A stretch of 64,000 nucleotides of DNA from Candidatus Omnitrophota bacterium (GTDB taxonomy: Bacteria > Omnitrophota > Gorgyraeia > B26-G9 > JBDRCZ01). The notes under the pieces were generated by a model. It saw only the letters and a list, made by a program, of their open reading frames with translations, had not been told where the DNA came from and ran no database searches. The position numbers were made by a program, and so were the translations under genes. The stretch covers positions 582-64,581 of the forward strand of contig JBDRCZ010000040.1 in NCBI GenBank assembly GCA_043821285.1. The letters run 5' to 3'. Each line of letters begins with the position of its first letter. Positions within the stretch are counted from its first letter, which is position 1. Positions 1 through 45,563 of the stretch are shown one piece after another.

Positions 1-3000
1 CATATGTTCCCTAAGAAAAGCTACCCACCCTTGTTCTGCGGCTATTTGCATTACCCGCTCACACCACTCATTTCGCAGCCGTTTATGCTTCTTGAAAATA
101 GCATACTCAATAAGCAGTAAAGAAATAATCTCTGCATACAATCGCTTAGTTGAAGCAGCCTGAAAAATTTCTCTCAAACTATTCTTGTTAATTAACCCTG
201 CCCTACTTGCTTCTACTATTATTTCCATGGTTGCTTCACTCATACTAATCTGATACTGCCTAGCAATGTTTTGGACTTGTGGACTTCCCAAAACTTCAGG
301 CGCAGAAGATAAATTTTTAGCTTTTGTTCCCTGCCCACGTAAAGACACCCTAATATCCTTCTGCAGTTTTACAGCCTTTGTGTACTCATCTCTCCTGGCA
401 TGAAAACCACTGATTATTCTTTCTCCTAAATATTTCTCCGCCTCTTTCGGACAAAGGTCTAAAATATACTGACGCGCGTCGTTAACAACTTTCTCATCGC
501 TATCACGTAACACACTCAACACTAATGACTCCACTATTCGTGTCGGGAAGTTTTTCGGCGCAAAGTGCTCACAAATAATATTTTTCTTTGTCTCGATAAT
601 ATTAACCGCTTTTAATCGTCTTCCTTCTTCCTTTTCATTTACCGCGGCCATTAGAAAATGGAACAGTGAATATTGGAGCATTTCTGGCACGAATGCCCAT
701 TGTTCTGCTCTCTCCCGAACATCATCATTCTCTTCATCTAAAGCTGCACTTGCAAAATGTCCCGCGGCATCTCTTACTATTCCCAGTTGAAAGATTAACT
801 CGCCTGCTCTATTACGTAGTTCTTCTTTTTCATCCATAATAGCTGCTCCTACAAGTGGTCCAACGGTTTCTTCTATAAATTTAGGGATAAGTGCCTCGGC
901 TATTGATCGTAATTCTGGAAAATCTTTAAATTCTGGTTCATCTTTAGAAACCGCAAAGCGTACAACCAGCCCTGCGTATTCTTGCAATGGTTCCAGTTTA
1001 TCCAGAGCCAACTCCCAAACACCCCTATCTTTTGAAAAAGTGCTTGCGTTTCTAATGAGCCTTACCGCTCTCCGTCTACGCTCCCTTCTTGTTTCCCATT
1101 CTTTTTTATTAATGCCTGTCCTTATAGTGCCCTGTTCTCGAACACCGGGAGTTTTACCTGGATCTTCTTCGCCTGACATTCTCCTTTCTTCATCGACAAC
1201 AGGTAAAGGCTGTAATGGTTTCCTGCTTCCTGGGAGAATCGTTGTACTGTATGGACTCTTACCTAAGGCAGGGTAGAAACTATAACGTTCAGGAACAGTG
1301 ATACTGCTATCTTGTTTTTTCAAGATGTAAGTATCTACCAATCCCCGCTCTTTTGGACCAATAAATATAGGCATTAAAGTTATATTGATACCCCTTGTTT
1401 TAAATTCTAAGATGATTTCTGAAACTATACTTTCATCCAGCATGTGCTTTAAATTTGGTCCATGAATATATCCTCCATCCTTTGTAACTCGGATAATTTC
1501 AAGCATAACATCAGCCATTTCATCCATATCAATCGCTTCATAGCTTGTAACAATATCTATTGAACTATCCGGTAAAAAATCTAAATTCCGAGCATCCGCC
1601 ACACGAAATTCAACATTAGAAGGTATGTTTCCTTTCCTCCCACGAACCCCTTCATTTTTTAAATTATAAACGACCTTTATAGCCGTAATCGCTATCGAAT
1701 TTTTCCTTAAATCCTCTCTTAACTTTTCATGCCAAATATATGCAGAAATCTCTTGAGCTGCGCGAATAGCATCGGGAACACGATCAATTCCAATTACTTT
1801 CTTAGGATAGCCATATTTATCTATCTTACCAACTGCGGCAAAAAGAACAGGTATCCCTGCTCCACAACCCACATCTAAAATTATCTTCCCATCGAGTTCT
1901 CCTGTGCTTCGATGTATTGCTCCTATTTGCTTGTGTGCGTTAAACGCTCCAAGAGAACAAACTCTTAATGCAGCAAAGTCCTCTGGAGACATTTTTCCCG
2001 GGCTAGTTTCGTATGCAAACCCTACCATTCCCAACCCAAGATAAATCATTAAACCAATAAGACAAGCGCTGATAGCAAAAAGTGGAAGTCCTATCTGATT
2101 TAATCCTAAGCCGAGAATGAAGGCAGCAAATGGCAAGAAACCAAATATCTTAGCTAAAAGTTCATTGTCTCTTGGAAAAAGCACATTCCCCATCTCATAT
2201 AAATTCAGGGATAATTTAACCATGAGCTGCCTAAATGCTGGAAGATTGTTAACAGCTTGACTATAGCTAATGCTCCCAGCCTGCGTCCAGGAAGGCCAAA
2301 CCTCATCATCAGCAAGCGGCAGGCGCCATGCCTTATAATAACCATAAGCCAATACACCCGAAGTACTCATTACCAAGAGTACTGGCAGATTCATCACTAA
2401 TACTGCAGAAAGCTGGGCTAAGATAGAAACATTACTATCAATTTGCATTCCCCCTGCAATGAAATTCCATACCCCGAACAATACTACTCCTATCTCAATA
2501 AGTGCCAAAACTGCATATGTTTTAGCAAAAATCTTTGCCTGTTTTTTTGTTAGGAAAAGTACTGATTCTGCCCTAAGGGGATTTTTAACGCTATGATTAC
2601 GCTGATTAGCTAAGCTTTGGCTTAATCTACTAAAAAATGTCTCACCAAAATGTGTGCAAAAAAAAGCAACAACAATTTCCCCCTTTTTTTTATGTTGTAT
2701 GATATCTTCTCTTCTTACTTCAAGTTCTTCTCTTGAACCAATCTTATTCAAATCAACCCCGAACTTATCTGCCAATTCAAGCAAGAAGATAATTTCTTCT
2801 ACCGCTTTATTTTTATACCCATCTTTATAGCTATTTATTAAATGCTTACGAATCTTCGCTCGCCATTCGCTAAGTAGTTCGCCCTGAAGGAAACGGTATT
2901 CTATAATTACTATAATCGCATTTTTTAAAGCATCGAAAATGTCCTGGGGATAATCCTTAGCAAACGCCAGAAGACGTAACGCAACCTTTTCTTTTTCTCT

Positions 3001-4923
3001 TTCTTTTTCTTTTTTCTCTTCTTTAGATTTCGGTGTTGTAATAGTTGTAATAACTGTTTCTATATCTCGATAAATACCGAACTCACAATATGCTAACAAT
3101 CTTAACAACATCCCCACAGCCCGTCCTTTTTTAGTTAAGGCATAGGCAACAGGTCTATTTTTAATATCTATTTTCTCAATACAACCTGGGGGAACTATAT
3201 CCATTATATTTTGCCCTACAAGGCTAATTTTTTTCTCCGGTACTTCTCCTCCCGCATTTATTTCTCTCGCTATTTCTTTAGGCCGCACTATCGGGTGATG
3301 CTTCCATGTTAAATTAAATAGTGCTATTAAAATCGCTCTTTGTTTTGGATCAAGCGCCGTTACTTCTGATGAAAATCCATCAGACCGCCATAGTTTTTTT
3401 AACTCTTCTGTATCCCGAAGTGCTGGAGCTTCAACAATTCCTGTTTTCTCAATCCCCTTTGGTGTAAGTTCCCACCGCCCCCGATCGGATGAAAGCAACC
3501 CCTCTTTCTTTAACGCCTGCATTACTGCAGCTACTCTTAATTTTTCTATTTCTGCCCCTTCTGATTTTAACCGCTTAAGTTCATCATAAATTTCATCTAA
3601 TGTAGGAAATCGTCCGTTTTTTTCATAATAGCTCACAAATGCCTTGAGTACTAACTTTCTACTAATTATTTTATTTTCTAACGCCATCTCTTTACCATGT
3701 TTATCCTTAACTAAAACAACTTTTTTCCCTTCTCCCCCCTTACATCCAGAAATAACTAATTCTACCTCTGCCCCGGGAGGAAGACTTAACCGCTGCTTAC
3801 TGTTAGGGATATCTAATCTTCCATCTGAAGGGACTCTCGTACGTAGCTGCTCGGTAGAAGCGATGCCATTAAATTCTTCTTTGCCCAGTTTTTCATACCC
3901 CCTTACCAAACAGCCAGTTTTATCATAAATTCGCCACTTTGCTCTTTCGCCAATTAATTGAGCACACAACTCTCCCCTTAGCCTGCGAATAAACTGTTCC
4001 ATTGGTTCTGACTCGTTCCTTGTTATAATAATTGGCTCCCCTTGCAGACTTAAAATCGGCGTATCGTTTTTATAGGTCAAAAAAACCACGCTACTTATTT
4101 CGCCGTTTTTTGTTCTTATCGCAATACAAGCCTCTTCCAGATTAAGCACTGGGAGTAATTCTGTAAAAATAAGGCCACCCGCAAAACTTAACCTTGCGTC
4201 ATCATCCAACCAAGTTATACTTGTTACATCTCCTGTTTCAATGCGTTGTCCATGAATATTCCTAGTAAAAACATACAATAACTTACCTGTGTTATTATCT
4301 ACAACTATTGAACGTCGTACTTCAACAACTTTATCTCCATGAAAAATATACACTATAGTAATCATCTCTTTTTCCCCAGCCACATAGGTCTCATAGACTA
4401 CTTCACTTCCTGCATATTTACTAAATTTAGGATATGGGTTTGATCCTCTTGGCAACTTCCCGTATTTATCTATCACAGCTTTTCCAATTATTTTTCCACC
4501 ATATTTAATTGTAATCTCTTCAGATAACCCGGCAATCCAAACCGCATCTTTTTTTACCGGTATTTCTAAAACCGCTGGGTCCTCAATGTCTCCGGAAACA
4601 ACAAACACCCGCTCCCGATGATTATCATCAATTTTAATAAAAAGCTTGTTTTGTAATACTGCGGAATAAATAACATTAAGGCCGCTTAAAGATTGTTTAT
4701 GCTTCGCACCTTGCCTAATCTGCCGGTATGCCCGGCGTAAGTTTATACTAAGCTCTACTTCTTTTGCAACATCCGGGCCGGAGATATTTATCGCCGGGGC
4801 AAGATGAGTAAATACCCCCTTCAGATTGCCACCCGCAGCCCATGAAATGTCCAGGCAGAAGAAGGCATTTATTAATATTATGGCTATTAGCCTGAACCAA
4901 ATTGTGCGTGCCAAATTATTCAT
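1..4923 (-). CDS. Giant membrane protein, paralogous family member; 3' end runs off the window edge. Carries the shared N-terminal leader, a multipass TM block and a class I SAM-methyltransferase motif.
   Basis: This ORF is absent from the supplied ORF track because it has no in-window stop. Manual translation of the reverse complement gave an open frame of 1641 codons, from the ATG at 4921-4923 to position 1, with no stop seen. The start is preceded by a GAGG ribosome-binding site. The N-terminus MNNLARTIWFRLIAIILINAFFCLDISWAAGGNLKG matches the leader of the other giant ORFs. The following ~60 aa (HLAPAINISGPDVAKEV...LRRAYRQIRQ) and the TM block (AQLSAVLVMNLP...SGVLAYGYYKAWRLPLADDEV...SYSQAVNNLPAFRQ...KLSLNLYEMGNV) are homologous to ORF 5110..13695. 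It contains the motif ILDVGCGAGIPVLF. Confidence 0.7.
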   Translation of the reverse strand, partial: MNNLARTIWFRLIAIILINAFFCLDISWAAGGNLKGVFTHLAPAINISGPDVAKEVELSINLRRAYRQIRQGAKHKQSLSGLNVIYSAVLQNKLFIKIDDNHRERVFVVSGDIEDPAVLEIPVKKDAVWIAGLSEEITIKYGGKIIGKAVIDKYGKLPRGSNPYPKFSKYAGSEVVYETYVAGEKEMITIVYIFHGDKVVEVRRSIVVDNNTGKLLYVFTRNIHGQRIETGDVTSITWLDDDARLSFAGGLIFTELLPVLNLEEACIAIRTKNGEISSVVFLTYKNDTPILSLQGEPIIITRNESEPMEQFIRRLRGELCAQLIGERAKWRIYDKTGCLVRGYEKLGKEEFNGIASTEQLRTRVPSDGRLDIPNSKQRLSLPPGAEVELVISGCKGGEGKKVVLVKDKHGKEMALENKIISRKLVLKAFVSYYEKNGRFPTLDEIYDELKRLKSEGAEIEKLRVAAVMQALKKEGLLSSDRGRWELTPKGIEKTGIVEAPALRDTEELKKLWRSDGFSSEVTALDPKQRAILIALFNLTWKHHPIVRPKEIAREINAGGEVPEKKISLVGQNIMDIVPPGCIEKIDIKNRPVAYALTKKGRAVGMLLRLLAYCEFGIYRDIETVITTITTPKSKEEKKEKEREKEKVALRLLAFAKDYPQDIFDALKNAIIVIIEYRFLQGELLSEWRAKIRKHLINSYKDGYKNKAVEEIIFLLELADKFGVDLNKIGSREELEVRREDIIQHKKKGEIVVAFFCTHFGETFFSRLSQSLANQRNHSVKNPLRAESVLFLTKKQAKIFAKTYAVLALIEIGVVLFGVWNFIAGGMQIDSNVSILAQLSAVLVMNLPVLLVMSTSGVLAYGYYKAWRLPLADDEVWPSWTQAGSISYSQAVNNLPAFRQLMVKLSLNLYEMGNVLFPRDNELLAKIFGFLPFAAFILGLGLNQIGLPLFAISACLIGLMIYLGLGMVGFAYETSPGKMSPEDFAALRVCSLGAFNAHKQIGAIHRSTGELDGKIILDVGCGAGIPVLFAAVGKIDKYGYPKKVIGIDRVPDAIRAAQEISAYIWHEKLREDLRKNSIAITAIKVVYNLKNEGVRGRKGNIPSNVEFRVADARNLDFLPDSSIDIVTSYEAIDMDEMADVMLEIIRVTKDGGYIHGPNLKHMLDESIVSEIILEFKTRGINITLMPIFIGPKERGLVDTYILKKQDSSITVPERYSFYPALGKSPYSTTILPGSRKPLQPLPVVDEERRMSGEEDPGKTPGVREQGTIRTGINKKEWETRRERRRRAVRLIRNASTFSKDRGVWELALDKLEPLQEYAGLVVRFAVSKDEPEFKDFPELRSIAEALIPKFIEETVGPLVGAAIMDEKEELRNRAGELIFQLGIVRDAAGHFASAALDEENDDVRERAEQWAFVPEMLQYSLFHFLMAAVNEKEEGRRLKAVNIIETKKNIICEHFAPKNFPTRIVESLVLSVLRDSDEKVVNDARQYILDLCPKEAEKYLGERIISGFHARRDEYTKAVKLQKDIRVSLRGQGTKAKNLSSAPEVLGSPQVQNIARQYQISMSEATMEIIVEASRAGLINKNSLREIFQAASTKRLYAEIISLLLIEYAIFKKHKRLRNEWCERVMQIAAEQGWVAFLREHM

Positions 4924-5109
4924 ATGTTATGTCCTCTTAGTTAATTTCAAATGCCAAATCTCAAATGAATCATCCAATAAACAAATATTTTAATCTCAAT
5001 TTCTAATTAACCTAATACTTCTCGTATCGTGTATTGAGTATCGAGTATTGAGTTTTTTATTGTAGTTTTTTTATGCTCAATACGCAATACGCAATACTCA
5101 CGACGGTAC
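4924..5109 (-). repeat. Conserved intergenic module of the giant-gene array (heptamer-repeat hairpin plus ribosome-binding site).
   Basis: Contains gagtattgagtatcgagtattgag - A/T loop - ctcaatacgcaatacgcaatactc, an imperfect inverted repeat of TCAATAC(G/T) triplets. Also contains the shared block aattagaaattgagattaaaatatttgtttattggatgattcatttg. Confidence 0.8.
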
Positions 5110-8100
5110 CTAAATCGCACTTTCCACTAATCCCAACTCTACTATCTGCTTCAGCCCCAGTTCTTCAACAGGGCCGGCCAGCACCCCTTCCCACTGCTGC
5201 GGGGAAACATTAACCCATGCCTCTACAATATCCAGAATATCTTGTGGTTGCCATAAACCAAAAACAAATGCGTCTACCTTTTTCTCCAAAACATCACTTC
5301 TAAGGAACACCCCTCCCGCTAAAGGGACTAAAACGCTTACAAATCCTCTGCTGTGCATTTCTGCCGCGTGGCTATTGCTAGAAGAATATATCTTCCACGA
5401 ATTCCCAAAATGCATAATTTGACCTGGCAAAAGTCCTAACTCCTCAACATAACGTTGAAGCAATGGACCATTCAAAACGTCTTTATAACAATAGTCAACA
5501 TACTCGGCAATCTCCGGATGTTTGTTTTTTACATTGCTAAACCATCGCAACACATTAGGATTCCTGATGGTTATGGCAACGCGCAGTCCCATAGACTTAA
5601 GATTTTTAAAAAGCTCTAATAATCCCTCTATTCCATAACCCTGCAGCACCTTTTCCAAAACCTCTTCAAATTCAAAGGAAACTAATTTGATATCCTGCTG
5701 TGGCGGATGAATAATAAAATAATTACCTGTTTGGGGCATTCTCTGGTAAAGTTCTTCTTCTCTAATAACTCTTGGCTGTCCGTGCTTATTATAGACCACT
5801 ATCTGATCCAATAAATCATCGGAAAGCGGTCTGTAATTTAAACAGTGAATTATCCTTCTTAAAATCTCACGATGCTCTTGCCCGCGCGAATAATAATTGC
5901 TGTTGAGGTTAATAAAAAGCTCAAAGGAAATACCTAATTCCGCCAGTTTAATTTCTAATGCTGTTTTAAATTCTTCCCCATAAACCTCAAAATTTAGATC
6001 TTCACAATACCTGACTATCTTATCTAATATTACCCGGTAGTTTATAAGATAGCGCATTATCTCCCCTCTTTCCGCTTCCCCGCGCAAAAAGCGCTCAAAC
6101 ATAGCTAATATTTCTCTTTCAAACGCTGTGATTCTGCTTGCCCTACTTGCCATGGCTGCTTCCCACTGTTTTTGGTCCCGCAATGCACTGATTCCACGCA
6201 AGGCACGCGGGGTACGTTGCTCAGGCTCTGCTTGTCCATCTAAACTCTCTGCCAAAGGAACACTTCCCAAATATATCTTCCCACTATTATGATAAACAAG
6301 CTGATTTTCATGCCCATCAATACTAATAACTCTGCCGTCTTCCATTTTGTGCTCGCCCAGATACCATCCTTTCCTCTCCTCTTCGTCATAAAATTTCATA
6401 TTCGCTACCCCATAAACAGCAGTAATCCCATATGTTTGAGCAAGGGTTTCTGCATGAACAGAAATAATCTGTGCAACAATATGCACACCCCGAGGAATAC
6501 GGTTTATCATCTGCGGATTAACTCTATCCAAAAATAAAATCACACCATCTACGTCTTCTGGCTGTTCACGTTCATACTTCTCTAATAATTCTTCCGCCGC
6601 CTCAGCGGAATTAGCCACCCATCCGCGAAAAGCACCGCCGCTTACCCCGTGTCCGCGGGCAATTGGTTCATAATCCGGTGAATCCACAAATTCCGGATAA
6701 TCATCTTGAATAATATCGTCATTAGTCTGCGTAAGCCACAACTTCCCGAGTTCTACTGTAAACTCAAAGTGTTGATTATTCCCGAATATCTCTTTCAGCT
6801 GATAAGCATAAGCTAATATCTCTTGGTATATCTCTGGCTGTAATTCCTCAAGTGTCTGTTCGTGTTCAAATACCCTCTCTGTATTACTTAAAAGCACATA
6901 ATTCTGACCCGCCCGGCTCATTACCTGGTCTCCCGTAGATTGAAACCTAAATCTTCCCTGAACCACTTCTCTGCCATCAGGCAAAATTCTTAAAGCCGCA
7001 GCTCCTGCCCCGGATATTTTCCCATCTGCTGTTGGTGATAAATTGCCAAATACCCCTTTCTGCAATATAACTACGCTCCCCCATTCCTGCGAAATCCTGT
7101 GCCGCGCACGATACTCCTGAGCCTCGGCAGAATCCCAGGAAGCATAGACAGTATCAATTGCCAGCATTACTTGAACAATCATATCCTCCGGTATCTGTGC
7201 TCCTTTTCCATGTGTACTCACAATTTCTTTGTAACGCTCACATACCCTAATCATTTCTTCTCCAGACATATCATCCTTTTCATAAATATTAAGCACCTCT
7301 TCAAAATATTCCTCCGGAATTCCCAAAATATGAATAGCATACGCCCGGATAAACTCTGCATAAGTATCATAGGCAAACCATACGTCCCCGGTCTGTTCTG
7401 CTAACTCCTGTGCTTCTTTATCATTCATCCCTAAATTAGGTATCGTAACTAAAAGTCCGGGCAGGGCAAACGCCGAGCCGTTGCGCGCGTATAACAATAA
7501 TTTAAGCTCCGGATACTTTGAATATTCTCTTAACCGGGCAATCTCTCCCTCTACCTCTTCTTTGAATTCTTCTGATTTAGAGATCTCTGGCCGGGTAATT
7601 AACCTTGCGCTGATAACCACCCCCGGAGGAACCGGTATACCCTGCTCAGTCATCCAAACTAAATTAAGCCCCTTCTTACTCCACAGAGAAAGCAGGCGCT
7701 CGCGGGGAATTACATCTTCTTCTTGGCCAAATCTAAAAAACTGCTCTTCCATGACAATCTCATCCGTAGAGTCTCCGCCATCTATAAATTCATCATTACC
7801 CAAAGTCAGCTCATTCTCTAATATCTGATTAAACCGCATCAGCGCATCATCAAAGGCAAGTATTCCGGTATCGCGAATCAGCCCATCAATAAACTCACTC
7901 GCAGCTTGCTCTTTTCCTTCTTCACTAATAACTTCGCTTTCACCCCCAAATTCATCTATTCTTTTTTCAGTTTTTATTCTATCTTGCCACTCCTGTGTTA
8001 AATCCGCTAATTGCAGATTATCCCAGAAATGCCCCATTGCAAAGCGCATGTTTTCATTAATCTTGCGATTAATCTTATGCACTTCTGTACGTAATGCCCT

Positions 8101-13695: not shown

Positions 13696-14074
13696 ATGTT
13701 AATGCCTCATTACTTAATTTCAAATGCCAAATGCCAAAATCCCCGCCACAAAGTCGAAGATCCGCCAACGCTTTGTAGTGGACATCGGCGGACGGGCAAA
13801 TTCCAAATGACAAATGAATCATCCAATAAACAAATATTTTAATTTTAATTTCTAATTAACCTAATACTTCTCGTATCGAGTATTGAGTTTTTTATTGTAG
13901 TTTTTTTATGCTCAATACGCAATACACATTACTAATTAAATCCTCGATACCCAATGCGTAGTTTTAAAGTCTTTCTCCGTGTCCTCTGTGCGCTCTGTGG
14001 TAAAATTTTATTTTTTTCGTGTATTTCGTGGTTGAAAATAAATTTTGATTTTTGAAGTTTGGATTTTGGATTTA
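13696..14074 (-). repeat. Conserved intergenic module with the heptamer hairpin, a GC-rich small hairpin, the CACNGAG x3 repeat and the TTTCGTG x2 element.
   Basis: Shares long nucleotide stretches with 21869..22424 and 27615..27965. Confidence 0.8.
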
Positions 14075-17098: not shown

Positions 17099-17341
17099 AT
17101 CTCACCAAATATATTCATGAATTTCTAATTAACCTAATTGCTATTTCTCGTATTGAGTATTGCGTATCGAGTATTACGGTTTTTAAATTCGCAGTGATTA
17201 GTATATTTCACTCTTTGCCCCATGTCCTTTGCTTTCTGTTTTTAACATTTTGATTTTTGATTTTTTTCTGTCATCTGTTTGCTGTCTTTTAACTTCGGTT
17301 TCTTACACTAAATACGCAATACACAATACTCACAACGGTAA
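17099..17341 (-). repeat. Conserved intergenic module (a divergent copy).
   Basis: Contains attgagtattgcgtatcgagtattacgg and aaatacgcaatacacaatactcacaacggtaactaaatcgccc. Confidence 0.7.
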
Positions 17342-20300: not shown

Positions 20301-21868
20301 ATGATCAGAAGCGGCAACCCTATTTCATATGGCAATCCAAACGCTTTTATCACAGCAAAACTCCATAATCCCACAAAGCCGCCTGATTCAACAACTGCTG
20401 GCGCTAAATCCTGTCCTACCCAGTCTTGTCCTATCCGATCATACCACCTTTGCAGCCAGGGCCACCGTCCGCCGCGGGATTTTTCCGGAATTTGTAATAT
20501 TATTACTATTTCTTTTGTCAAGGGCAAATTTCTAAGTTCTTCTAATAATCTTTTCAGAATGTCACTAGTGCCTTGTGGACTAAGCCTAAAATTTTCACCC
20601 ACTACATCGCCTACCTGCCTTAATGATTTAACACGCCCATCATCAAACCCAAACAGCGCAATAAAATTCGCCCTGTCTCTTTCTGCATCTTTTCCCTCAA
20701 GGTTACTTAAGTAGTTCTCAATATCTTTTCTAAAATCCTCAAGTTTTTTAAGTACATCTATCTCTTCATCTGTCAATGGTCTCTGCCCAATTTTCCTGAG
20801 TAAATCTTCTAATTTTTCAAGCGGATTTTCTAACAAAGCTTTTAAAAGATTTATCGTACCTTGAACTCTTTCCAGAGGCAATTCTCCTAACCCACGTTCT
20901 ACCCGTTGGTTTTCTGCTGCCTCTTTTTGTGCCACAATCGTCTCTTTCTCTGCTGTAACTAAATCCTCAATTATTTCTGCACCATACAATAGCATTGCCT
21001 GTCTCCATATCTTATGGAGATAAGCTCTGGATACTGGCTTTTTTTTACCGTCTGCCATTGACGTTGTAAATTTATCTGTGTTTATTTCCCTCTTTACATT
21101 TTTTGTTACCTTATCAGAAAGCCTTTCTGCTCTTGACAGCTTCTTCCAAGATTCGCGCAATTCTCTTTCAATCATTTCCCGGTTCTTCCATGCATAATCC
21201 GCCGGCCCGGCATATACCCTTTGCAACACCCCGACTTTATTCTTAGGGATTTTACCCAGTTCAGATAAAAGGTGCATTAATTGGCTTAAGCTTTTATACC
21301 CCAGACGCGTTCTGTGCTGGACAAGCCATGGTATAAAATTAGCCGGGTCACTAAAATCTACCTGCTCTCCTTGTTCCTTCAATAGTTCCGCTAAGTTAGC
21401 CGTGGCTTTGGCGCGAACAAACTCAATCCGCCCCTTTTGAAAACCTTCTGTTCTAAGCATTAACTCGGGAAAACTCATAATCAAGGCTCTTCTATAAGAA
21501 TTTCTAAAACAACTTCTCTCCCCAAGTACTTTTCTAAGTGTACCTAAGGAAAGAAACTGTTTTTTCCTTATGCGATAAAACATTTCCCGTAATGCCGCAA
21601 TCTCTTCCTCAGAAAGCTCTCCTTTTCTAAAAGATTCATATTTATCTTTTAGCCCATGAATCCTCTCAAAAAGCACCTCTCTTACTAATAATATATTTCT
21701 GAGAGTATTCGAAAGACCACGGCTGCCAATCTCCAATGGCACGGCAAGCTGGGCATTTAGCCCTTTGAGGTTTCCCCCAGCAGCCCAGGAGATGTCTAAG
21801 CAGAAGAAGGATTGGATCAGCACGATAGATATTAATTTGAATAATATGTGTTGTTTTAGCTTACTCAT
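17342..21868 (-). CDS. Giant-family membrane protein (1508 aa) with the shared leader, a central TM block and two to three class I SAM-methyltransferase motif-I occurrences. C-terminus is LEVERAI.
   Basis: ORF track. The first ~100 nt of coding sequence are nearly identical to ORF 5110..13695. Motifs VLDIGTRKGNFL, ILDVGSGLGGYLLN, IGVEW. TM stretch GLWSFAVIKAFGLP...ILCIANPV. Confidence 0.8.
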   Translation of the reverse strand: MSKLKQHILFKLISIVLIQSFFCLDISWAAGGNLKGLNAQLAVPLEIGSRGLSNTLRNILLVREVLFERIHGLKDKYESFRKGELSEEEIAALREMFYRIRKKQFLSLGTLRKVLGERSCFRNSYRRALIMSFPELMLRTEGFQKGRIEFVRAKATANLAELLKEQGEQVDFSDPANFIPWLVQHRTRLGYKSLSQLMHLLSELGKIPKNKVGVLQRVYAGPADYAWKNREMIERELRESWKKLSRAERLSDKVTKNVKREINTDKFTTSMADGKKKPVSRAYLHKIWRQAMLLYGAEIIEDLVTAEKETIVAQKEAAENQRVERGLGELPLERVQGTINLLKALLENPLEKLEDLLRKIGQRPLTDEEIDVLKKLEDFRKDIENYLSNLEGKDAERDRANFIALFGFDDGRVKSLRQVGDVVGENFRLSPQGTSDILKRLLEELRNLPLTKEIVIILQIPEKSRGGRWPWLQRWYDRIGQDWVGQDLAPAVVESGGFVGLWSFAVIKAFGLPYEIGLPLLIIAGFQFCWQALHLRSALEKQLFVISVLTVVITVPILCIANPVNGGVIQTIQTGAGMIVLFTVPHAVVSSLWKRRKKLILWAKQQRTKRHYYRIVGTQARSEPTEMSTPVKTRWQSLLKTIQTPRIVQETPEQEINRLLRHRDTFENGLNKLSEHLDDLEKRGKEIEELNLIFYFRGTISYDYMVNTLGFSAEEVLYFKEALKRVLEQVVRIGHLHQDRCNEVISQFDAPIAEAMRKRIDAKFRLNTDLHLYRNIARLIFRALVTGWLLIFPVKDIIAVLCAPLIATGYIILIIFIGIPYICCRAYQILYSQWLIKIEINSTDELCSMINEILPQLKNEIKNLNPVQIQLLRVLAYPDEDIARILEWEEGGPIQEEDLQSEIEALKEYLALDSPIRIVLEAIRSRQVPFIAFNARRLPVIAALTRRPLTQEEEKVLKAAAMGEEISFHERGTLDSLKRRWWVDTDTQAVLLWLYLQVNREELLAQTTQDTGGSLTVLLRRIYKRVKPRKDEIIFQEGKDVLDIGTRKGNFLSNLKKANPRIGRLVGIDIEEIGDREEGIEFVRMDEKMLAFADGSFDAVTINNIATELPPCIQFLGEKDEEGTQEREDVENLLSEIYRVLRDQGEIYITIELPPKSVEYKYLNRIVQKTELWRIYEQKGVRAFLTEAGFVDIRIEKIPRYWPDSREGTVRAKTLVRARKQILDEESDANEEPDASTGTNDASSASVQQCSASSSILDVIEGIGSQHPEIVSGEISDGIRTKIQTGEPVKIILDVGSGLGGYLLNRAAIASEQGEDVLLIGVEWHPDKFNYFSKVIENERFSNILILNMSLQDLPQEFKFDEIVMLAPDLRNILSKAIGEKIGELLNEGGIVSVVTNLADRVTLEALTSRYHEPAMKILEGFGAKGLNEETVEVVDLNNPPDYLPPMEGTYFTEANIGLVTLIVYKKPSPQKRAQALEEKGILAAQVTTANTLSALLIERVLEVERAI

Positions 21869-22424
21869 ATGTTAATGCCTCATTACTTAATTTCAAATGC
21901 CAAATCTCCCGCCACCCCGCATCGGCGGGCAGGCAAATGAATCATCCAATAAACAAATATTCTAATCTCAATTTCTAATTAACCTAATACTTCTCGTATC
22001 GTGTATTGAGGATTGAGTATTGAGTTTTTTATTGTAGTTTTTTTATGCTCAATACTCAATACGCAATACACATTACTAATTAAATCCTCGATGCACAATA
22101 CGTAGTTTTAACGTTTTTCTCTGTGAACTCTGTGCGCTCAGTGGTAAAATTTTTATTTTTTTGCCATTCTGGTTTCATCATTCGTCATTTTCTTCCATTC
22201 TCTATATTTCTTTTATTCTGTCTTATTTCTTTTCGTTTTTCTTCGTGCCCTTCGTGAGCTTCGTGGTAAATTTTTTAATTTCCCGCCAAGCCGCAAAGGG
22301 CGCCAGGGTTGTTAAAAACTCTGTGCAATAATTGTATTTTTTGTTTTCGAGTAATTCGTATATTTCGTGGTTAAAGACTTTAGTTCTTCACACAATACAT
22401 AATGCTCAATACTCACGACAGCAC
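21869..22424 (-). repeat. Conserved intergenic module (the longest copy) with two CACNGAG-type triple repeats and ATTYGTG repeats followed by GTTAAAGACTTTAGTT.
   Basis: ctctgtgaactctgtgcgctcagtggtaaaat at 22129-22160. cttcgtgcccttcgtgagcttcgtggtaaat at 22241-22270. aattcgtatatttcgtggttaaagactttagtt at 22353-22385. Confidence 0.8.
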
Positions 22425-25400
22425 CTAAATTGCCCTCTCCACCACTTCCAACGCTACTATCTGCCCCGGTCCCAGCGCGTCAACTACCCCAGCACAATGA
22501 AAATAGCATGACAAAAGAATATCACAACACCTACGCAACTCTCCCAGCTCAGTTAAATTATTGATTCTCTCAATCAGCAAATACCCCTCATCCCCTAACG
22601 CTTGCTTCAATCCTTCATCTCCCAACTCTTCACGGATCAGTATAAGTAATGGTCTAATGGAATTTACCAGGGGTTCAAGTTCCTCTCTATCATACATTGC
22701 CCTTTTAAGAATTTGCGCTTGCCCATAAAGTACTAAATACCTTATCCAGCTTTGGAAATTTACCGGTTCTCCCTCTGCCTCAGCAAGATTTTGATAAATT
22801 CCGGCAGCCATCAACTTATCACTATTAAACAGAACTTCTAATACTGCTTCATCGCCCTCTAAAGCCGCAAAAATAAGCTCGTCCACGGTAATGCTCAAGA
22901 GTTCTGATTTGTTTTCCTTAATCTCCCGCAGTTTGTTTTTAACATCTTGTCTATTTAAATCCTCAGCCAGCTCCTCCCTCAGACATGCCTGTATTAATAG
23001 CTTAACTTCTGCTGTTGTCTGGATGTCTTTAACATCTTTGCGGAGTATGTCTCTAACCGTCTTTACCCACAACAGGTAATCTACTTGTTCCTTAAAAATG
23101 CTAAGTCCTTCGTCAATCGCATGCTGGTCAGATAATCTTTTATAGTATTGCATAAGCCGTGACAAATTCTTTAGCCGCCATGCACCCATCTCCTCGGGCG
23201 GTTTTATTAGAAAATTAGTGAGTCCTTCTTTATTAATTATTTCTCCAAGCAGTATGTCCAGAGCAACAACCCGCGGCAAGTCAACTGGGGAGTAATATCT
23301 GTCCATTATCGCAGGCGTAATCCGCTGATTAAATATGAATATAAGAACAGCTCCTCTTAGGTCTTCGATGCAGAGTCCTTCTTTTCCAATGCCTATTCCT
23401 TTTGCAAGTTCTCTTACAGCTTCCTCGGACATTTCACTAATTTCTCTCTTTATTGCATTCCACATATTCTGATGATCCAACTGTGACAACCCGCGATTTA
23501 TGGATAAGATTACAACTTCTCTGAATATCTCCGGAGTAATTCTTCTGAGTTCTTCCATTCTGCTGATAAAACCTGTTGTTAAAAGCAGAGTTCCGGTTGT
23601 AACATCAGCGTGTATAGGCGTTCCATCATCTCTGGACATCAATGTGACATTCACTTCCCTTTCACTTGCTATTTGTCTTATCTCTTCAAATGTTGCCCGA
23701 TCTTCTTCAGAAAATACACGCTCACTAGGTCCTTTTCTTCTTATATCTCTACCCTCTGTCTGGGATCCTAATAATGGCAAGGAGATAAAAATCGGCAAAA
23801 ATTTTTTTATCGTTTCCACGGCATTTCTTATTATTTCTGCTAAATTCACTTGCCTATGTCCTCGTCGACGTGGTCTTGCCCCCGTTCTTGGTGGTGAAGG
23901 TGGACTTGTTGGCGGTTCCCTCGGTTCAGTAGTAGATGTCTCGAAATAAATACCTAGCGGCGCGCTCGGTACTTCTCGAGCAGCAGTTAACTCCTTTTGG
24001 TATAATGCTACGGTGTCATCAAACCCCTCATTACGCAGACAATTTATTACATCTTCCAGAGAGTGTTCCAGTCCTATTCCATTAGTAAAAACCCCTGATA
24101 TCTCCTCATCGTTTTTCGCCTCTGCCCTTAGTTTAATCAACAAGCAAGTTAAATCAATCAAAGTTTGCACTTCTAATCGCGTTTTCTTTTTTGCTCGTTT
24201 CGAAAGCACCTCATTAAGCAAACTAACTAATCCCTCAAAACATCCATCTTCTTCTATTCCATAGATAAGGTGTTGTAACTGCTCCTGATTTTCATTGATT
24301 CCAATTCTAATATCATCACGTTGACGGCCTTCACGTAGGCTGGCGTGATAAATTGTTGCAAGCAGGTACGGCAGCCGTGCTCTGGTTCGTATTTGTTGTT
24401 CAGTAGTTTCATCTCCTGAAGATACAAACTCTCTAATGGATCGTTCGATCGCCTCTTGCACCCCCCGTTCAACCCTTCCTAATAATTCCAAAGTTTTATT
24501 GAAAAGCTCCGCATAAATATCCGGCTCCGCACTTGGTTCTTGCACCAGAGTATCTCTATCTGGCGTTTCAACAGGCACTTCTCTCACAGTACGCGCGTAT
24601 ACATCCGCAATAACCATATCAACTTCTCCAAATCCATCCCCAGCATCCAATATCGCCTGCCAGATTAGCTCTATACTAATCTCTTCATCTCCTAACTCTA
24701 CTGTTATTTGATCCAAGATTGCTAATCTTTCCTCTATACCCTGCGGGTTTATTCCTTGTAACAGCGCCGCTCTAATCGTCTCATTGCTAAGTCCTAGGAT
24801 AAATACTTTGATAAGGATATCAATTATTGTCTCTTGCAATGCATCCCTATCCGTGTCTGTCATATCTTCGCTAAAACCATGTGCCGTGATAATATCTTTT
24901 AAAACATCCCACTCGATAATTATTCCCTGGTGCTCTAACTCTTGGCTAAGTTCATTAACAAAATCTTCCAAAGTAAGTGGTTCTCTCTCTGCTGGAGGCA
25001 ATGTATATTCAACTAAAGGTGGCCTTTCCTCTCTTGTTCCTAAGCCCCTGACTCCTTTATCAACCCCACTTGCTGCTTGCAGTGTAATCTCGCTTAAATG
25101 ACCTGCGGCCAAAACCGCGGTATCAACATCTTCTCTTTCTTCATCTATTCCCGGACTTCTTCCTCCAAGTCCTTCTCTTGTCCCTTCTACTGTGATTATG
25201 GGCATTGGTAAAGGAGTTCTTCTATCCCATATTGGTTGCCAGTCTTTTTTCTTTCTTAAAATCAAAAGCGGGAAATGACCGACTAATCTATTTATTCTAC
25301 GTGCCTCGGTTTGTTCCGAAGAATCTACGAACGCGTATTCTATTTCTGGGCTAATGTATTTATCTGACAAGAGCTGCCAGCTATCGCCCAGATAAATCTC

Positions 25401-27614
25401 AAACCCCATTTGTCCCAATGAACTTAATAATTCCTGCGTGACCACTCTTAGTTTAGACATGCTAATTACCAGAATACCTTTTTCATCAAGAAATTCCGCC
25501 AAATTACTGACTGCCTTCCATCGTAATTCATCCGGGATATAATCCAAAGACGGAAGGGTTATTAAATCGAACAACCCGCCTTGTTCTTTCAATTGTTCTG
25601 CTAATCTATCTAAAGAGCGCGCTAAAGGCTCCTGTCCCTGATCATATACTTTCTCTCCTAATTCCAGGCTTTGCCGGATAAATCCCGGCCGGTAATCTGC
25701 TATTTCAACTGCTAAGTTAAGTCCCCGGCCAATTATTTGTTCTGTATCTTGAACCATTTCCCTGTCCAGTCCCCCGCCGCCATCTACTGCCAGCAGTCTC
25801 TGGTCTTGCTTAATTAACCCATTTTGATATAAATATCGATAAATCAATAACCATTGTGTATAAAAGGATGTTTGTTTTATTTCCGCAAGAAAATCCGGCT
25901 GGCTAATCAGCCTTTGCCATAGATTTAAGGCAGCATACCAAAAATTTATATTTTCTTCTCCTTGTTTTAACGAAAAAATATACCGCGTTTCATTATAATG
26001 TGCATTCCTCATCAGTACATTTATATCCCCTTCCTCTTGAACATAGCATCCTTTTGTTTCCAGATATGAGTTTATCCATAGTATTGGTCTTCCACCGCGT
26101 TCACTCTGAAAATATTTTTCTTGTACCGGCTCGCCATTAACATATAAGGTGCTTTCTATACAGCGTATGTTCAACGGACTTTCTTCGCCTTTACTATCAA
26201 CTACCAGCACCTCCGGAAAAACAACCTCGCTTTTTTCCGGGCTAGAGGCCAGTCTGACGTATCTTGAGCCTTGGCTTACTCCGTGGATGAAAACATTCCC
26301 CACGGCAAAACGGGTTGCTTTTAATGTGGTACTCTCTATGGTTTCAGAGACACTAATAACACTGCCTCTTTCGTCCCTAAATATCCCAAGGAACTCCTCA
26401 ACCTCTTTGCTCTCTAAAACTGATAAGCTAATACTGTGCTTAGTAAAGCTCTTGATAATTTGATCATTGAGTAAAAAAGTGGTTTCATTCTCCTTTATTT
26501 CTATGACCTCAATGGACAAAAGAGCTCTATCTTCTTTATGGAGTAAAACCCTCTTGTCTCTGCCCTCACGTATATATCTTATTGGTAACCCCCGGGCAAC
26601 TGAACCTAACCTGAACTCGTATCCTTGCACCACAAAACGTTCTTTTAAATTTTCCGCGCCTTCAAATAATATATCGAATACTAAGTCTCTGTCTTCATCC
26701 TGATAACCAGCAATCCCCGATGGATATTTAATCAAATTTTCTGTGCTAATCTTATTACATGCGTTAATCACCCGTTCAGCGCCGCAATCTTTTATTTGGG
26801 CATAGATAAAAGTATCACTTAGCGTCCATTCTGAGATTTCCATCCATTGTTTAATTCTGAATATTGCTTCTTGTTGCAGTGCGGCTAATTCTGTAATAAA
26901 GGCATCAATGCCTTTAGCAGCAATTTCTGCATAGAGCACTTCTGAACTTAATCCTGGCAATCTTTTTTCCTCAAGCAAGTCTTTGATTTTGTTTAAACTC
27001 AAATTGTCATACCGCGTAATGTCTCCATAAACTGTTTGTATCTCCCGGATAAACCCATGAACCTGCTCTTCACGCACTCCTCTGGCTAATCTATTTTTTA
27101 GCCGAAGATAAACAAACTCCCAAGTCAGGGGAAATCCCACCGCTTTGAAATTATCAAATATACTCCTTAATCTTTCAAACGCGTCACCATAAGGAGCAAG
27201 ACGCTCTTGCGTTTCTATCGCAAATCCCGCCTCTGCTTTTGGATTGGCGGTACTTCTCCTACCGGGGCTTTCCCTTGGCGTTGCTGGTCTACTTTGTTCA
27301 AATCTAATATGTAATTCACCGTTTTCTTTACTAACAACAATCCTGCGTCCATCAGAAAGTACTACGACAATTTCATTTTCTCCAAACTCTACCCCAATTA
27401 TGTCTTCTATTTGGATCCCCTGTCGTTGTAATTCTGGAAAGACCTCAAACAAAATTCCTGTTTGCTGCCCCGCCATTTTAAGCGCTGGCGAAAGGCTCGT
27501 AGACAGACCTGTTATGTTCCCCCCAGCGGACAGGGAAATGTCCAGGCAGAAAAAGGCATTTATTAATATTACAGCTATCAGTTTGAATAATATATGTTGT
27601 TTTAGCTTACTCAT
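22425..27614 (-). CDS. Giant-family protein (1729 aa) with the shared leader, a long acidic/coiled central region and a Pro/Arg-rich linker. C-terminus is LEVVERAI.
   Basis: ORF track. N-terminus MSKLKQHILFKLIAVILINAFFCLDISLSAGGNITG. Linker PREPPTSPPSPPRTGARPRRRGHR. Conserved tail and GAGG ribosome-binding site. Confidence 0.8.
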   Translation of the reverse strand: MSKLKQHILFKLIAVILINAFFCLDISLSAGGNITGLSTSLSPALKMAGQQTGILFEVFPELQRQGIQIEDIIGVEFGENEIVVVLSDGRRIVVSKENGELHIRFEQSRPATPRESPGRRSTANPKAEAGFAIETQERLAPYGDAFERLRSIFDNFKAVGFPLTWEFVYLRLKNRLARGVREEQVHGFIREIQTVYGDITRYDNLSLNKIKDLLEEKRLPGLSSEVLYAEIAAKGIDAFITELAALQQEAIFRIKQWMEISEWTLSDTFIYAQIKDCGAERVINACNKISTENLIKYPSGIAGYQDEDRDLVFDILFEGAENLKERFVVQGYEFRLGSVARGLPIRYIREGRDKRVLLHKEDRALLSIEVIEIKENETTFLLNDQIIKSFTKHSISLSVLESKEVEEFLGIFRDERGSVISVSETIESTTLKATRFAVGNVFIHGVSQGSRYVRLASSPEKSEVVFPEVLVVDSKGEESPLNIRCIESTLYVNGEPVQEKYFQSERGGRPILWINSYLETKGCYVQEEGDINVLMRNAHYNETRYIFSLKQGEENINFWYAALNLWQRLISQPDFLAEIKQTSFYTQWLLIYRYLYQNGLIKQDQRLLAVDGGGGLDREMVQDTEQIIGRGLNLAVEIADYRPGFIRQSLELGEKVYDQGQEPLARSLDRLAEQLKEQGGLFDLITLPSLDYIPDELRWKAVSNLAEFLDEKGILVISMSKLRVVTQELLSSLGQMGFEIYLGDSWQLLSDKYISPEIEYAFVDSSEQTEARRINRLVGHFPLLILRKKKDWQPIWDRRTPLPMPIITVEGTREGLGGRSPGIDEEREDVDTAVLAAGHLSEITLQAASGVDKGVRGLGTREERPPLVEYTLPPAEREPLTLEDFVNELSQELEHQGIIIEWDVLKDIITAHGFSEDMTDTDRDALQETIIDILIKVFILGLSNETIRAALLQGINPQGIEERLAILDQITVELGDEEISIELIWQAILDAGDGFGEVDMVIADVYARTVREVPVETPDRDTLVQEPSAEPDIYAELFNKTLELLGRVERGVQEAIERSIREFVSSGDETTEQQIRTRARLPYLLATIYHASLREGRQRDDIRIGINENQEQLQHLIYGIEEDGCFEGLVSLLNEVLSKRAKKKTRLEVQTLIDLTCLLIKLRAEAKNDEEISGVFTNGIGLEHSLEDVINCLRNEGFDDTVALYQKELTAAREVPSAPLGIYFETSTTEPREPPTSPPSPPRTGARPRRRGHRQVNLAEIIRNAVETIKKFLPIFISLPLLGSQTEGRDIRRKGPSERVFSEEDRATFEEIRQIASEREVNVTLMSRDDGTPIHADVTTGTLLLTTGFISRMEELRRITPEIFREVVILSINRGLSQLDHQNMWNAIKREISEMSEEAVRELAKGIGIGKEGLCIEDLRGAVLIFIFNQRITPAIMDRYYSPVDLPRVVALDILLGEIINKEGLTNFLIKPPEEMGAWRLKNLSRLMQYYKRLSDQHAIDEGLSIFKEQVDYLLWVKTVRDILRKDVKDIQTTAEVKLLIQACLREELAEDLNRQDVKNKLREIKENKSELLSITVDELIFAALEGDEAVLEVLFNSDKLMAAGIYQNLAEAEGEPVNFQSWIRYLVLYGQAQILKRAMYDREELEPLVNSIRPLLILIREELGDEGLKQALGDEGYLLIERINNLTELGELRRCCDILLSCYFHCAGVVDALGPGQIVALEVVERAI

Positions 27615-27965
27615 ATGTTAATGCCTCATTAGTTAATTTCAAATCTCAAAATCCAAATGACAAATGAATCATCCAATAAACAAATATTTTAATCTCAATT
27701 TCTAATTGACCTAATTTCCCCAACCTGAACAAGCCAGAACCAAACATAATCACACCACATTTGGCTCGTCCAGCTTGTCATATAAAAACCTTCGTGTTCA
27801 AACTTTCCCTTTTTATTTTTTCTGTCCTCTGACTTCTGTATTCTGTTCTCTTATGCTCGATACCCAATACTCAATGCGTAGTTTTAAAGTCTTTCTCCGT
27901 GTCCTCTGTGCGCTCTGTGGTAAAATTTTTATTTTTTTCACGCAATCCGCAATACGTATCTCCAA
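27615..27965 (-). repeat. Upstream module of the last array gene, with the same conserved blocks.
   Basis: ctccgtgtcctctgtgcgctctgtggtaaaattttt at 27894-27925 is identical to 13974-14005. Confidence 0.75.
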
Positions 27966-28030
27966 CACCTAATTCCAAATAATCACCACGATTAAGTGAA
28001 TTTAAAATAAATTTAAAAATAGGATATTAA

Positions 28031-28058: not shown

Positions 28059-28071
28059 GGGATTTTTTAAA

Positions 28072-45545: not shown

Positions 45546-45563
45546 AGCTGCCCCCTTTTTACA

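Follow-up and report, generated by a model that had tools for sequence, protein, structure and literature searches.

The window analysed here is a 64,000-nt stretch of a metagenome-assembled genome (MAG) of Candidatus Omnitrophota bacterium (GenBank assembly GCA_043821285.1, contig JBDRCZ010000040.1, positions 582 to 64,581), and our subject is a family of large proteins encoded by six of its genes, G1 to G6. An earlier reading of the letters without database searches (hereafter the sequence-only reading) had reported five tandem minus-strand genes and an inverted sixth copy on the plus strand, and the list of open reading frames (ORFs) with its translations bears this out exactly:

1..4923, minus strand: G1, partial in the window (1641 of 1834 amino acids (aa)); the full-length protein is P0004
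5110..13695, minus strand: G2, 2861 aa (NCBI MFH1776817.1)
14075..17098, minus strand: G3, 1007 aa
17342..21868, minus strand: G4, 1508 aa
22425..27614, minus strand: G5, 1729 aa, first gene of the array
48956..51877, plus strand: G6, 973 aa (NCBI MFH1776839.1)

P0004 is identical to G1 across the part inside the window and ends in ...NVIEI beyond it. In an all-against-all BLASTP comparison, the first ~50 aa were the only segment common to all six proteins (50-70% identity, E 1e-11 to 2e-19). This N-terminal leader, which the sequence-only reading had picked out, is encoded by the following segments:

4768..4923, minus strand: leader of G1
13540..13695, minus strand: leader of G2
16943..17098, minus strand: leader of G3
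21713..21868, minus strand: leader of G4
27459..27614, minus strand: leader of G5
48956..49102, plus strand: leader of G6

A profile of the leader was scanned with HMMER exhaustively against 1.84 billion representative proteins (E<1e-3); the exhaustive scan was needed, since a word-indexed search with the profile retrieved a single protein. The scan returned 81 matches, three of them low-complexity artefacts, leaving ~78 real cluster representatives of 67-6278 aa, every one with the match at its N-terminus. The matches are specific to the family (81 in 1.84e9 proteins). When genomes and metagenomes were scanned at the DNA level with the leader, only 3 + 1 loci emerged. All members that carry a source name belong to Omnitrophota/Omnitrophica, and one genome-scan locus carries the label of a 'Planctomycetia' MAG. 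Neither Pfam nor NCBIfam holds a model for the leader or for the C-terminal tail described below, in keeping with the sequence-only reading, which did not recognise a described family in these proteins, and the leader/tail signature is not described in the passages of the literature on Omnitrophota giant proteins that our term searches reached.

The contig that carries G2 and G6 is 72.9 kb long. At least 21 members lie in the window's own MAG (locus tag ABH952), in several arrays that together amount to ~31,000 aa (~93 kb of coding DNA). Three tandem sets on other accessions of this MAG are:

MFH1776242-247: P0020, P0008, P0010 ... P0014
MFH1777822-23: P0007 and P0019
MFH1778348-49: P0011 and P0009

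Tandem arrays of members were also found in loci L001, L002, L005, L007, L008 and L009. The smallest complete arrangement is P0027, a 152-aa member with little beyond leader, linker and tail. Two further ORFs on other contigs of the same MAG, P0001 (67 aa, ABH952_06340) and P0007 (118 aa, ABH952_09745), are almost leader alone, and neither record is marked partial. Immediately downstream of P0007 comes the 3366-aa member P0019. The two short ORFs may represent 5′ ends of family genes that have decayed or been displaced.

A basic n-region opens the leader. Between K/R11 and D25 lies a hydrophobic core of 13 residues, and D-I-x-W-A-(A/G)-G-G and L-[AS]-P-x-Φ-x-I come after it. The logo of 78 sequences reads M-n-k-l-k-x-k-i-W-F-K-l-I-a-i-i-L-I-(Q/N)-A-F-L-c-L-D-I-a-W-A-(A/G)-G-G, followed by ~8-12 variable residues, the L-[AS]-P-x-Φ-x-I motif and an F...F helix. 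Key positions are held almost throughout: K/R11 in 77/78 sequences, F21 in 76/78, D25 in 75/78, A29 in 73/78, L43 in 76/78 and P45 in 62/78. By its N-flank charge, core length and small -3/-1 residues, the leader has the appearance of a standard Sec signal peptide. It shares with substrates of signal peptidase I (SPase I) a positively charged n-region and a hydrophobic region of matching length (about 7-15 residues in Sec-type peptides, 13 here). Around a putative cleavage site, position 27 (-3) is A/S/V/C in 74/78 leaders and position 29 (-1) is Ala in 73/78. Across the 78 leaders, K/R averages 2.9 and D/E 0.05 before the hydrophobic core, K/R averages 1.05 in the C-flank, and the N-flank is the more positive side in 71/78. 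The hydrophobic stretch is also readable as a 19-residue transmembrane (TM) helix extending to A30, and AlphaFold2 (AF2) models residues 3-33 as one helix. Within this helix the polar residues K11, N/Q19 and D25 are conserved, and conservation across the core follows an α-helical periodicity (permutation p = 0.0005). In very divergent members nothing remains beyond a generic signal peptide, a site resembling A-x-A and an 'MLSPxΦxI' motif, which favours real export of the N-terminus.

Three other signal types were considered and rejected. A lipoprotein signal peptide with the lipobox [LVI][ASTVI][GAS]C does not fit the A-F-F-C of the window leaders, and Cys is present in only 27/78 leaders. A type IV pilin-like (class III) signal would require Gly at -1 and Glu at +5, both missing from the consensus ...K-I-W-F-K-L-I-A... 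A double-glycine leader of the PCAT/C39 type is non-hydrophobic and 15-25 aa long, its GG keeping a constant register relative to hydrophobic or acidic positions further upstream; the family leader is strongly hydrophobic, its GG register shifts between subfamilies (WAAGG versus WAGG), and GG is missing in many members.

At the opposite end, the proteins conform to the consensus L-x-[LF]-[IV]-[E/G]-[Q/R]-[A/S]-I-COOH, in more general form Φ-x-Φ-[IV]-E-x-[AS]-I-COOH. Conservation here does not extend beyond the final 5-8 residues, which a linker rich in P, S and K precedes; such a pattern is that of short linear motifs. Ligands recognised through their carboxylate typically have a motif of this sort, at the extreme C-terminus and on a flexible linker. 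The sequence-only reading had given all six window proteins the ending (V/L)-E-(R/S/E)-A-I; this holds for G2 (VESAI) and for G3, G4 and G5 (VERAI in each), and does not hold for G6 (VQEAI) or for full-length G1 (NVIEI):

5113..5136, minus strand: G2 tail, ...LVESAI (last 8 codons)
14078..14101, minus strand: G3 tail, ...EVERAI
17345..17368, minus strand: G4 tail, ...EVERAI
22428..22451, minus strand: G5 tail, ...VVERAI
51851..51874, plus strand: G6 tail, ...FVQEAI

An [AS]-I end occurs in 54/79 leader-bearing proteins (53 of them ending in Ile) and in 0/23 other proteins of the window; the remaining 25/79 are for the most part short calls, probably truncated. The joint pattern of leader and tail is far beyond chance. 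We also asked whether the genes could be an artefact, either a giant gene that has been fragmented or pseudogenised or generic signal peptides combined with a chance C-terminal likeness. The total length and domain repertoire do resemble one giant gene, and MAG assemblies can be chimeric. We nevertheless consider this explanation refuted: no gene lacks a Shine-Dalgarno sequence, ATG, leader or stop codon of its own, the same organisation recurs in at least six other loci from independent assemblies, and the family specificity of the leader and the distribution of the tail both contradict it. A related candidate, in which the leader is an internal repeat of giant proteins and the arrays are split or fused giants, was rejected because all ~78 real matches are N-terminal. 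The leader was never found inside giant proteins, and weak leader-like second TM segments appear in one subfamily only.

The window genes thus belong to a genuine paralogous family with constant ends and variable middles, as the sequence-only reading had supposed. Over the first 48 codons, Nei-Gojobori estimates of nonsynonymous divergence (dN) lie between 0.13 and 0.34, synonymous divergence (dS) is saturated, and dN/dS is ~0.1. The leaders are therefore old paralogues under selection on the peptide and have not been homogenised recently. The earlier observation of DNA conserved at the coding ends and in the flanks consequently holds for the intergenic modules described below; leader-coding DNA is only 72-94% identical, a likeness that follows from conservation of the peptide, given saturated synonymous sites. 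The family has so far been seen only in Omnitrophota, and its two co-occurring terminal signatures are under purifying selection.

Between the constant ends, the window proteins carry the following recognisable parts, including S-adenosylmethionine (SAM) methyltransferases and a helix-turn-helix (HTH) match:

2038..2535, minus strand: G1, two TM hairpins (aa 797-962), following the leader and a ~770-aa region
1465..1893, minus strand: G1, SAM methyltransferase domain (aa 1011-1153)
13132..13281, minus strand: G2, weak XRE-type HTH match (aa 139-188; Pfam E 7e-4)
11590..12417, minus strand: G2, TM module (aa 427-702)
6721..7689, minus strand: G2, PPDK-like ATP-grasp domain (aa 2003-2325; TIGR01828, E 2.5e-59)
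15404..16273, minus strand: G3, polytopic TM region (aa 276-565)
15962..15976, minus strand: G3, HELSH motif (HExxH; aa 375-379) within the TM region
aa ~505-815, minus strand: G4, TM segments
18407..18769 and 17624..18001, minus strand: G4, two SAM methyltransferase domains
51143..51679, plus strand: G6, O-methyltransferase-like domain (aa 730-908)

The interiors had been said to differ entirely, and this did not stand: residues 605-968 of G1 and 251-601 of G2 form a four-TM module with 42% identity in BLASTP, and class I SAM methyltransferase domains recur in G1, G4 (twice) and G6. The HTH match of G2 also hits SinR in the PDB (E 0.1), and its paralogue P0009 is named an HTH regulator by NCBI. 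G3 and G5 have no domain matches in Pfam or NCBIfam; G3 includes a ~440-aa domain with no database match, and a PDB sequence search with G3 was empty. A full-length search with G5 among 5.8 billion proteins detected no homologue of its interior beyond the leader, and the PDB held none. A methyltransferase-like reading of G5 aa ~600-760 was dropped, with nothing in Pfam at E<=0.1 and a single-sequence AF2 model at a predicted local distance difference test (pLDDT) of 47.

Pfam searches over 46 other members returned HEAT, PPDK_N with PEP-utilizers, GGDEF, DUF218, NDK, PGK, guanylate kinase, GDPD, NUDIX, HD_4, AAA_11/12 helicase, ACT, M50 and methyltransferase domains. The cargo is therefore a set of TM hairpins and cytoplasm-type enzymes and not an adhesin or antigen repertoire: the window gave methyltransferases, a PPDK-like ATP-grasp domain and a weak XRE-type HTH match instead of such repeats. 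HExxH motifs are ~ten-fold over-represented (13 observed versus 1.3 expected) and occur in G3 and 11 other family proteins, often in or beside TM regions; P0013 has a match to the Pfam M50 site-2-protease family, and a subset of the family may be membrane metalloproteases. Three members carry a short domain resembling the PcrA/UvrD Tudor/DUF3553 domain (Pfam E 0.0045, below the curated cut-off):

P0004 (G1, outside the window), aa ~1735-1790: Tudor/DUF3553-like domain
P0009, aa 662-704: Tudor/DUF3553-like domain
P0020, aa 754-808: Tudor/DUF3553-like domain

In G1 and P0009 this domain is followed by the variant tail ...NVIEI.

Members exchange these parts. P0009 is a mosaic: its residues 5-591 align with G2 (78% identity), and its residues 614-751 with the PcrA/UvrD-Tudor-like C-terminal end of G1 (73%); P0011 has only the first 600 aa of G1 in common with it, and P0015 and G6 share one internal G6 block. 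As read from these alignments, module shuffling among members is real on an evolutionary scale. Of the recombination proposed by the sequence-only reading, this slow component survives, and cassette switching of the antigenic-variation type is not supported.

The intergenic spaces, 186-556 nt long, hold repeat modules only, with no ORF matching the family, and the junctions are mosaics of short modules, among them a repetitive extragenic palindrome (REP)-like CCACAGAGCGCACAGAG element. For these DNA modules, shuffled sequences gave an expectation of 0 matches. The principal modules are:

5026..5104, minus strand: hairpin module just 3′ of the stop codon (G2-G1 junction); copies at 13872..13926 and 21996..22076, and a degenerate copy after G4
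4962..5015, 13811..13864, 21934..21987 and 27661..27714, minus strand: 54-nt upstream module, 0-2 mismatches in four copies
27990..28076, minus strand: 87-nt promoter module upstream of G5, 91% identical to 48439..48524 (plus strand) upstream of G6
27889..27923, minus strand: REP-like intergenic module TTACCACAGAGCGCACAGAGGACACGGAGAAAGAC, with an identical copy at 13969..14003

The hairpin stems consist of 2-3 GUAUUG(C/A) units paired with CUCAAUAC units around a 23-nt A-rich loop; a 39-nt core is identical in 3 copies, predicted folding is stable (ΔG -18 to -29.5 kcal/mol, z -3.5 to -8.4), and there is no U-run behind the stem. The 54-nt module does not fold stably as RNA (z +0.7); after it come a GAGG Shine-Dalgarno sequence and then the ATG. 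The best promoter-like site, TTGAAA-16-TG-n-TATACT at 28058..28031, falls within the 87-nt module, and weaker TTGCGT-17-TACAAT sites lie inside the hairpin modules. Hence G5 to G1 are probably one transcription unit with one strong promoter and intercistronic hairpins, and the promoter module common to both suggests co-regulation of the array and G6. Short intergenic repeat families, including a REP-like CCACAGAGCGCACAGAGGACACGGAGAAA element, are also scattered across the window beyond the array:

13969-14003 and 27889-27923
29287-29322 and 35778-35813
30584-30621
40067-40122, 55711-55750 and 56078-56133

Antigenic- or phase-variation loci such as pilE/pilS, vlsE and msp2, and Rhs/CDI loci, resemble the array in their constant ends, variable remainder, tandem copies and repeated flanks. 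If the array were a cassette locus of surface proteins, the flanks would drive gene conversion, and the near-identity of the intergenic modules, a 145-nt block 94% identical across the starts of G2 and G4, the mosaic P0009 and the leader-only ORFs P0001 and P0007, as possible recombination remnants, could be cited for it. We consider it very improbable. Every copy is a complete, separately translatable gene, the window holds neither promoterless silent cassettes nor an expression site, and no invertase or recombinase was found in it. Both ends are constant, the leaders diverged anciently at synonymous sites, the cargo is enzymatic and cytoplasm-type, non-homologous interiors cannot convert one another, and the architecture is stable across distant genomes. 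Polymorphic toxins of the Rhs/CDI type differ further from the family, whose C-terminus is constant and which has no cognate immunity genes.

A link to much larger proteins emerged from loci of three independent assemblies, L005 (Logan), L007 (JGI) and L008 (NCBI GCA_004196255.1). In each, the gene order is a giant gene, a ~120-aa PilZ gene and then 3-5 genes with leader and tail; in L007 and L008, major facilitator superfamily (MFS) and GH2 genes follow the array. Two giants have recorded lengths of 6877 and 8365 aa; the third gene is cut by the end of the locus. Their C-termini, ...RELVESAA, ...RDLLEQAA and ...RELINNAI, belong to the family's tail class, and SecA_DEAD, SecA_PP_bind and P-loop_SecA domains are present in the giant of L008. 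The stand-alone PilZ genes lie at:

L005:9207-9566
L007:3112-3474 and 33148-33510
L008:887-1249

The PilZ orthologues are 53-57% identical across the three loci, the second L007 copy being more divergent (30-38%), and no stand-alone copy was found in the window, L001, L002 or L006. Together with GGDEF domains in some members, the PilZ neighbour hints at control by cyclic di-GMP (c-di-GMP). L002 and L009 have another context, with the array followed by GH116 and then SmpB. Between the giant and PilZ genes of L008, at L008:481-834, lies a gene for a bAvd/23S-rRNA-IVP four-helix bundle. bAvd is the accessory protein type of diversity-generating retroelements; the 24 kb fetched contained no reverse transcriptase.

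Giant and very long proteins of Omnitrophota are described, in the available passages of three studies, as combining a signal peptide plus TM helices with Methyltransf_11, PPDK_N, NUDIX, GGDEF, HAD/HD and HATPase domains (bioRxiv 10.1101/2023.11.21.568195; bioRxiv 10.64898/2026.06.07.730766; Seymour et al. 2023, PMC10066038). So far as those passages go, the archaeovorin-type giants share with the window family the phylum, the mix of signal peptide, TM segments and cytoplasm-type enzymes, and the same topology paradox. The window proteins therefore belong to a known but poorly understood phenomenon, that of the long and giant multi-domain proteins of Omnitrophota. They differ in size, archaeovorin-type giants exceeding 10-30 kaa, whereas the window proteins are 973-2861 aa and the largest leader-bearing protein is 6278 aa. 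The giants carry SecA_DEAD and C39 domains, whereas neither G1-G6 nor the 46 other members have a Pfam match to SecA_DEAD or the preprotein-binding domain, and the window proteins have no C39 domain. Unlike the giants, the family is multicopy and defined by its shared leader and tail. Its two-ended signature, its character as a multicopy companion family, the tail it has in common with giants and the conserved PilZ gene next to it were not encountered in the libraries and the parts of the literature searched.

Our leading interpretation, which as a whole package we give about an even chance of being right, is that this is a large Omnitrophota-specific family of membrane-associated multi-enzyme proteins whose constant ends are addressing or docking signals for common machinery, the leading candidate for which is a giant's SecA-like module. 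The leader would deliver every member to the cytoplasmic membrane, and the free C-terminal Ile peptide would be the ligand of a receptor common to the whole family. An archaeovorin-type giant protein would be the best candidate for the machinery or scaffold, because in other genomes arrays lie directly downstream of giants, the tail class is common to both and one giant has SecA-like domains. Recombination over evolutionary time, as opposed to programmed variation, would have moved cargo modules between members. Of the possibilities raised by the sequence-only reading, the best fit is a machinery that targets the proteins by their leader and C-terminal peptide, since the two ends co-occur across ~80 clusters and the tail is found on neighbouring giants.

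Several observations weigh against this interpretation, and most of them concern topology, for which the signals are contradictory: the leader predicts export, and the internal TM segments and the cargo predict a cytoplasmic location. The first internal TM segment has its K/R-richer flank on the N-terminal side in 36 members versus 10. In 38 TM hairpins, K/R residues sit on both flanks (2.8 and 2.1) and are nearly absent from the 4-residue loops, which under the positive-inside rule would place the soluble domains in the cytoplasm. The cargo chemistry, with binding of ATP, SAM, phosphoribosyl pyrophosphate (PRPP), c-di-GMP and DNA, belongs there as well. The periodicity of the leader core is unusual for a signal peptide that is merely cleaved and degraded. 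TM segments were called with a crude hydropathy script and not with a trained predictor; by that script, internal TM counts are even in 31 cases and odd in 22. An AF2 model of the N-terminal 290 aa of one member (20-sequence alignment) is all helices with low-confidence packing (pLDDT 68, predicted template modelling score 0.27). The window contains no receptor, translocase or giant gene, and the link to a SecA-like giant is one of synteny in three other genomes with a different leader subfamily, where the ends of the giants were compared at the C-terminus. The operon structure, too, derives from consensus scans only.

These same observations lend themselves to a somewhat unlikely alternative, a 'split giant', in which the leader would stay in the membrane as a helix, its conserved face (K11, N/Q19, D25, W28) bundling paralogues or binding a common partner, and the tail would dock on another member's N-domain or on a giant. 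The enzymes would then stay in the producer's cytoplasm as a membrane-tethered, non-covalent multi-enzyme complex that amounts to one giant protein. Such an arrangement would account for the helical periodicity and conserved polar residues of the leader core, for the positive-inside analysis of internal TM segments and hairpins, and for the cytoplasm-type cargo, including, in G2 and P0009, a weak HTH match immediately behind the leader. The ~31,000 aa of family coding capacity per genome is comparable to one giant gene, the 152-aa P0027 is a minimal connector-like member, and the tail is common with giants. However, the charge of the leader (N-flank more positive in 71/78) and its A-x-A site argue for N-in/C-out insertion and cleavage, and divergent members with only a generic signal peptide and LSPxΦxI are hard to square with an essential helix-helix interface. 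Roughly one in four full-length members, among them G5 and G6, has the leader as its sole hydrophobic segment, so that the topology of these proteins cannot return to the cytoplasm.

Which side of the membrane the enzymes occupy is what separates this arrangement from another, unlikely explanation: that the proteins are predatory or epibiotic effectors. Here the leader would be a true Sec signal, the mature N-terminus and/or the Ile peptide would provide a second-step signal, for example as a PDZ-type ligand for a route resembling the type II secretion system (T2SS) or another outer-membrane route, and the enzymes would act in or on prey, where ATP and SAM would be present. The canonical n/h/c organisation of the leader with small -3/-1 residues is consistent with this, as is, by analogy with typical carboxylate-recognised ligands, the C-terminal motif on its flexible linker. 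In passages of the giant-protein literature, Omnitrophota are reported to be predators or to depend on hosts, and to have T2SS/Tad genes and genes for extracellular glycoside hydrolases beside giant genes; GH2/GH116 and MFS genes adjoin the arrays in L007, L008, L009 and L002. Against it, the TM hairpins are strongly hydrophobic and, on being carried by Sec, would become stuck in the inner membrane of the producer; next to the array the window has no secretion-system genes, and there are no toxin/immunity pairs. A search beside the array for recombinase, invertase and PDZ genes was likewise negative.

The interpretation of the ends as addressing signals can be pushed to a more specific version, which we think quite doubtful: a two-ended address code in which the giant's SecA-like motor and membrane scaffold would recognise the leaders of dozens of companions encoded as separate genes and the tail would dock these on the giant or on one another, building a modular mega-assembly regulated through c-di-GMP and PilZ, a giant protein composed in part of interchangeable modules from separate genes. 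If true, it would be the first accessory-Sec-like, substrate-specific translocation or assembly system described in a diderm, and it would explain export-like signals on the cytoplasm-type enzymes of Omnitrophota. 

The nearest functional parallel to our leading interpretation is accessory Sec (SecA2/SecY2) of Gram-positive bacteria. It handles large serine-rich-repeat adhesins such as GspB, which have a special conserved signal peptide and a mature N-terminal AST domain needed for the dedicated SecA paralogue, and the substrate genes lie beside the motor. The resemblance, which is a functional analogy only, lies in very large proteins with a family-specific signal peptide and a conserved mature N-terminus. 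The family has none of the motifs that define accessory Sec membership, lacking KxYKxGKxW, serine-rich repeats and adjacent secA2/secY2/asp genes. The organism is a diderm, the SecA-like module sits inside a giant and in other genomes only, and the C-terminal motif has no counterpart in accessory Sec.

Short terminal signals that unite unrelated cargo are also known from PEP-CTERM/exosortase, LPXTG/sortase, the C-terminal domain of the type IX secretion system (T9SS) and encapsulin cargo-loading peptides, and the family resembles these in having many paralogues per genome and a terminal peptide on a flexible linker. Its tail has no TM helix or basic cluster, in contrast to PEP-CTERM, LPXTG and GlyGly-CTERM, and ends ...[AS]-I-COOH after a polar linker; no sorting-signal model was among the NCBIfam matches of G1-G6 (E<=1), and no sortase, exosortase or shell gene lies nearby. 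T9SS cargo has an 80-100-aa C-terminal β-sandwich domain compared with 5-8 residues here, and no T9SS model appeared among the NCBIfam matches. Encapsulin cargo-loading peptides differ in that the family's N-terminal leader is far too hydrophobic. Type I secretion substrates have an extreme C-terminal acidic-plus-hydrophobic motif (DVIV in PrtG, ELLAA in HasA) and require a free C-terminus. The family is similar in protein size and in its last 4-5 residues, acidic and then small or hydrophobic. It differs in possessing a leader, type I substrates having no N-terminal signal peptide or TM segment; RTX repeats had no match in G1-G6, and no ABC/MFP/TolC genes were found beside the array in the window.

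The topology paradox extends to Omnitrophota giants, which are among the largest predicted proteins and whose predicted 'extracellular' localisations are flagged as implausible in the available passages of published analyses (West-Roberts et al. 2023, bioRxiv 10.1101/2023.11.21.568195). The family turns this targeting problem into experiments on ordinary-sized, clonable proteins, dozens per genome. Leader and tail also provide signatures ready for hidden Markov models, with which hypothetical sequence could be annotated, ~31,000 aa in this genome alone.

Elsewhere in the window, the neighbours of the array are a polysaccharide locus (Wza, Wzc, Wzy, flippase and glycosyltransferase genes), an Rnf complex, a porin, ApbE, an M48 peptidase and LemA, a set that fits a diderm chromosome. 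Rfam identified two tRNAs and nothing else. Just upstream of the array, at 29414-30439, is a stand-alone 341-aa class I SAM methyltransferase (Methyltransf_23, E 1.5e-20). The long upstream regions of G5 and G6 each hold a small ORF, at 28629-28988 and 48055-48285; one of the two matches DUF6788 (E 8e-11) and the other is weakly BrnA-antitoxin-like (E 0.0018). Two 97-nt inverted repeats, 95% complementary, at 43480-43576 and 45563-45659 exactly flank a Wzc-like tyrosine-kinase/chain-length gene (43611..45545) and could form an invertible segment or paired regulatory or terminator elements. GC skew on the plus strand is strongly negative throughout (about -0.2 to -0.3), approaching zero only at ~30-32 kb and across G6 (48-52 kb), a pattern that matches the almost exclusive minus-strand coding. 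At the right end of the window (57471-63956), a block of CbiQ/heptaprenyl-synthase-like, porin, ApbE and RnfG genes recurs at L010:21374-26407 beside a 3712-aa member, and because that block adjoins a family protein, another member may lie just past position 64000.

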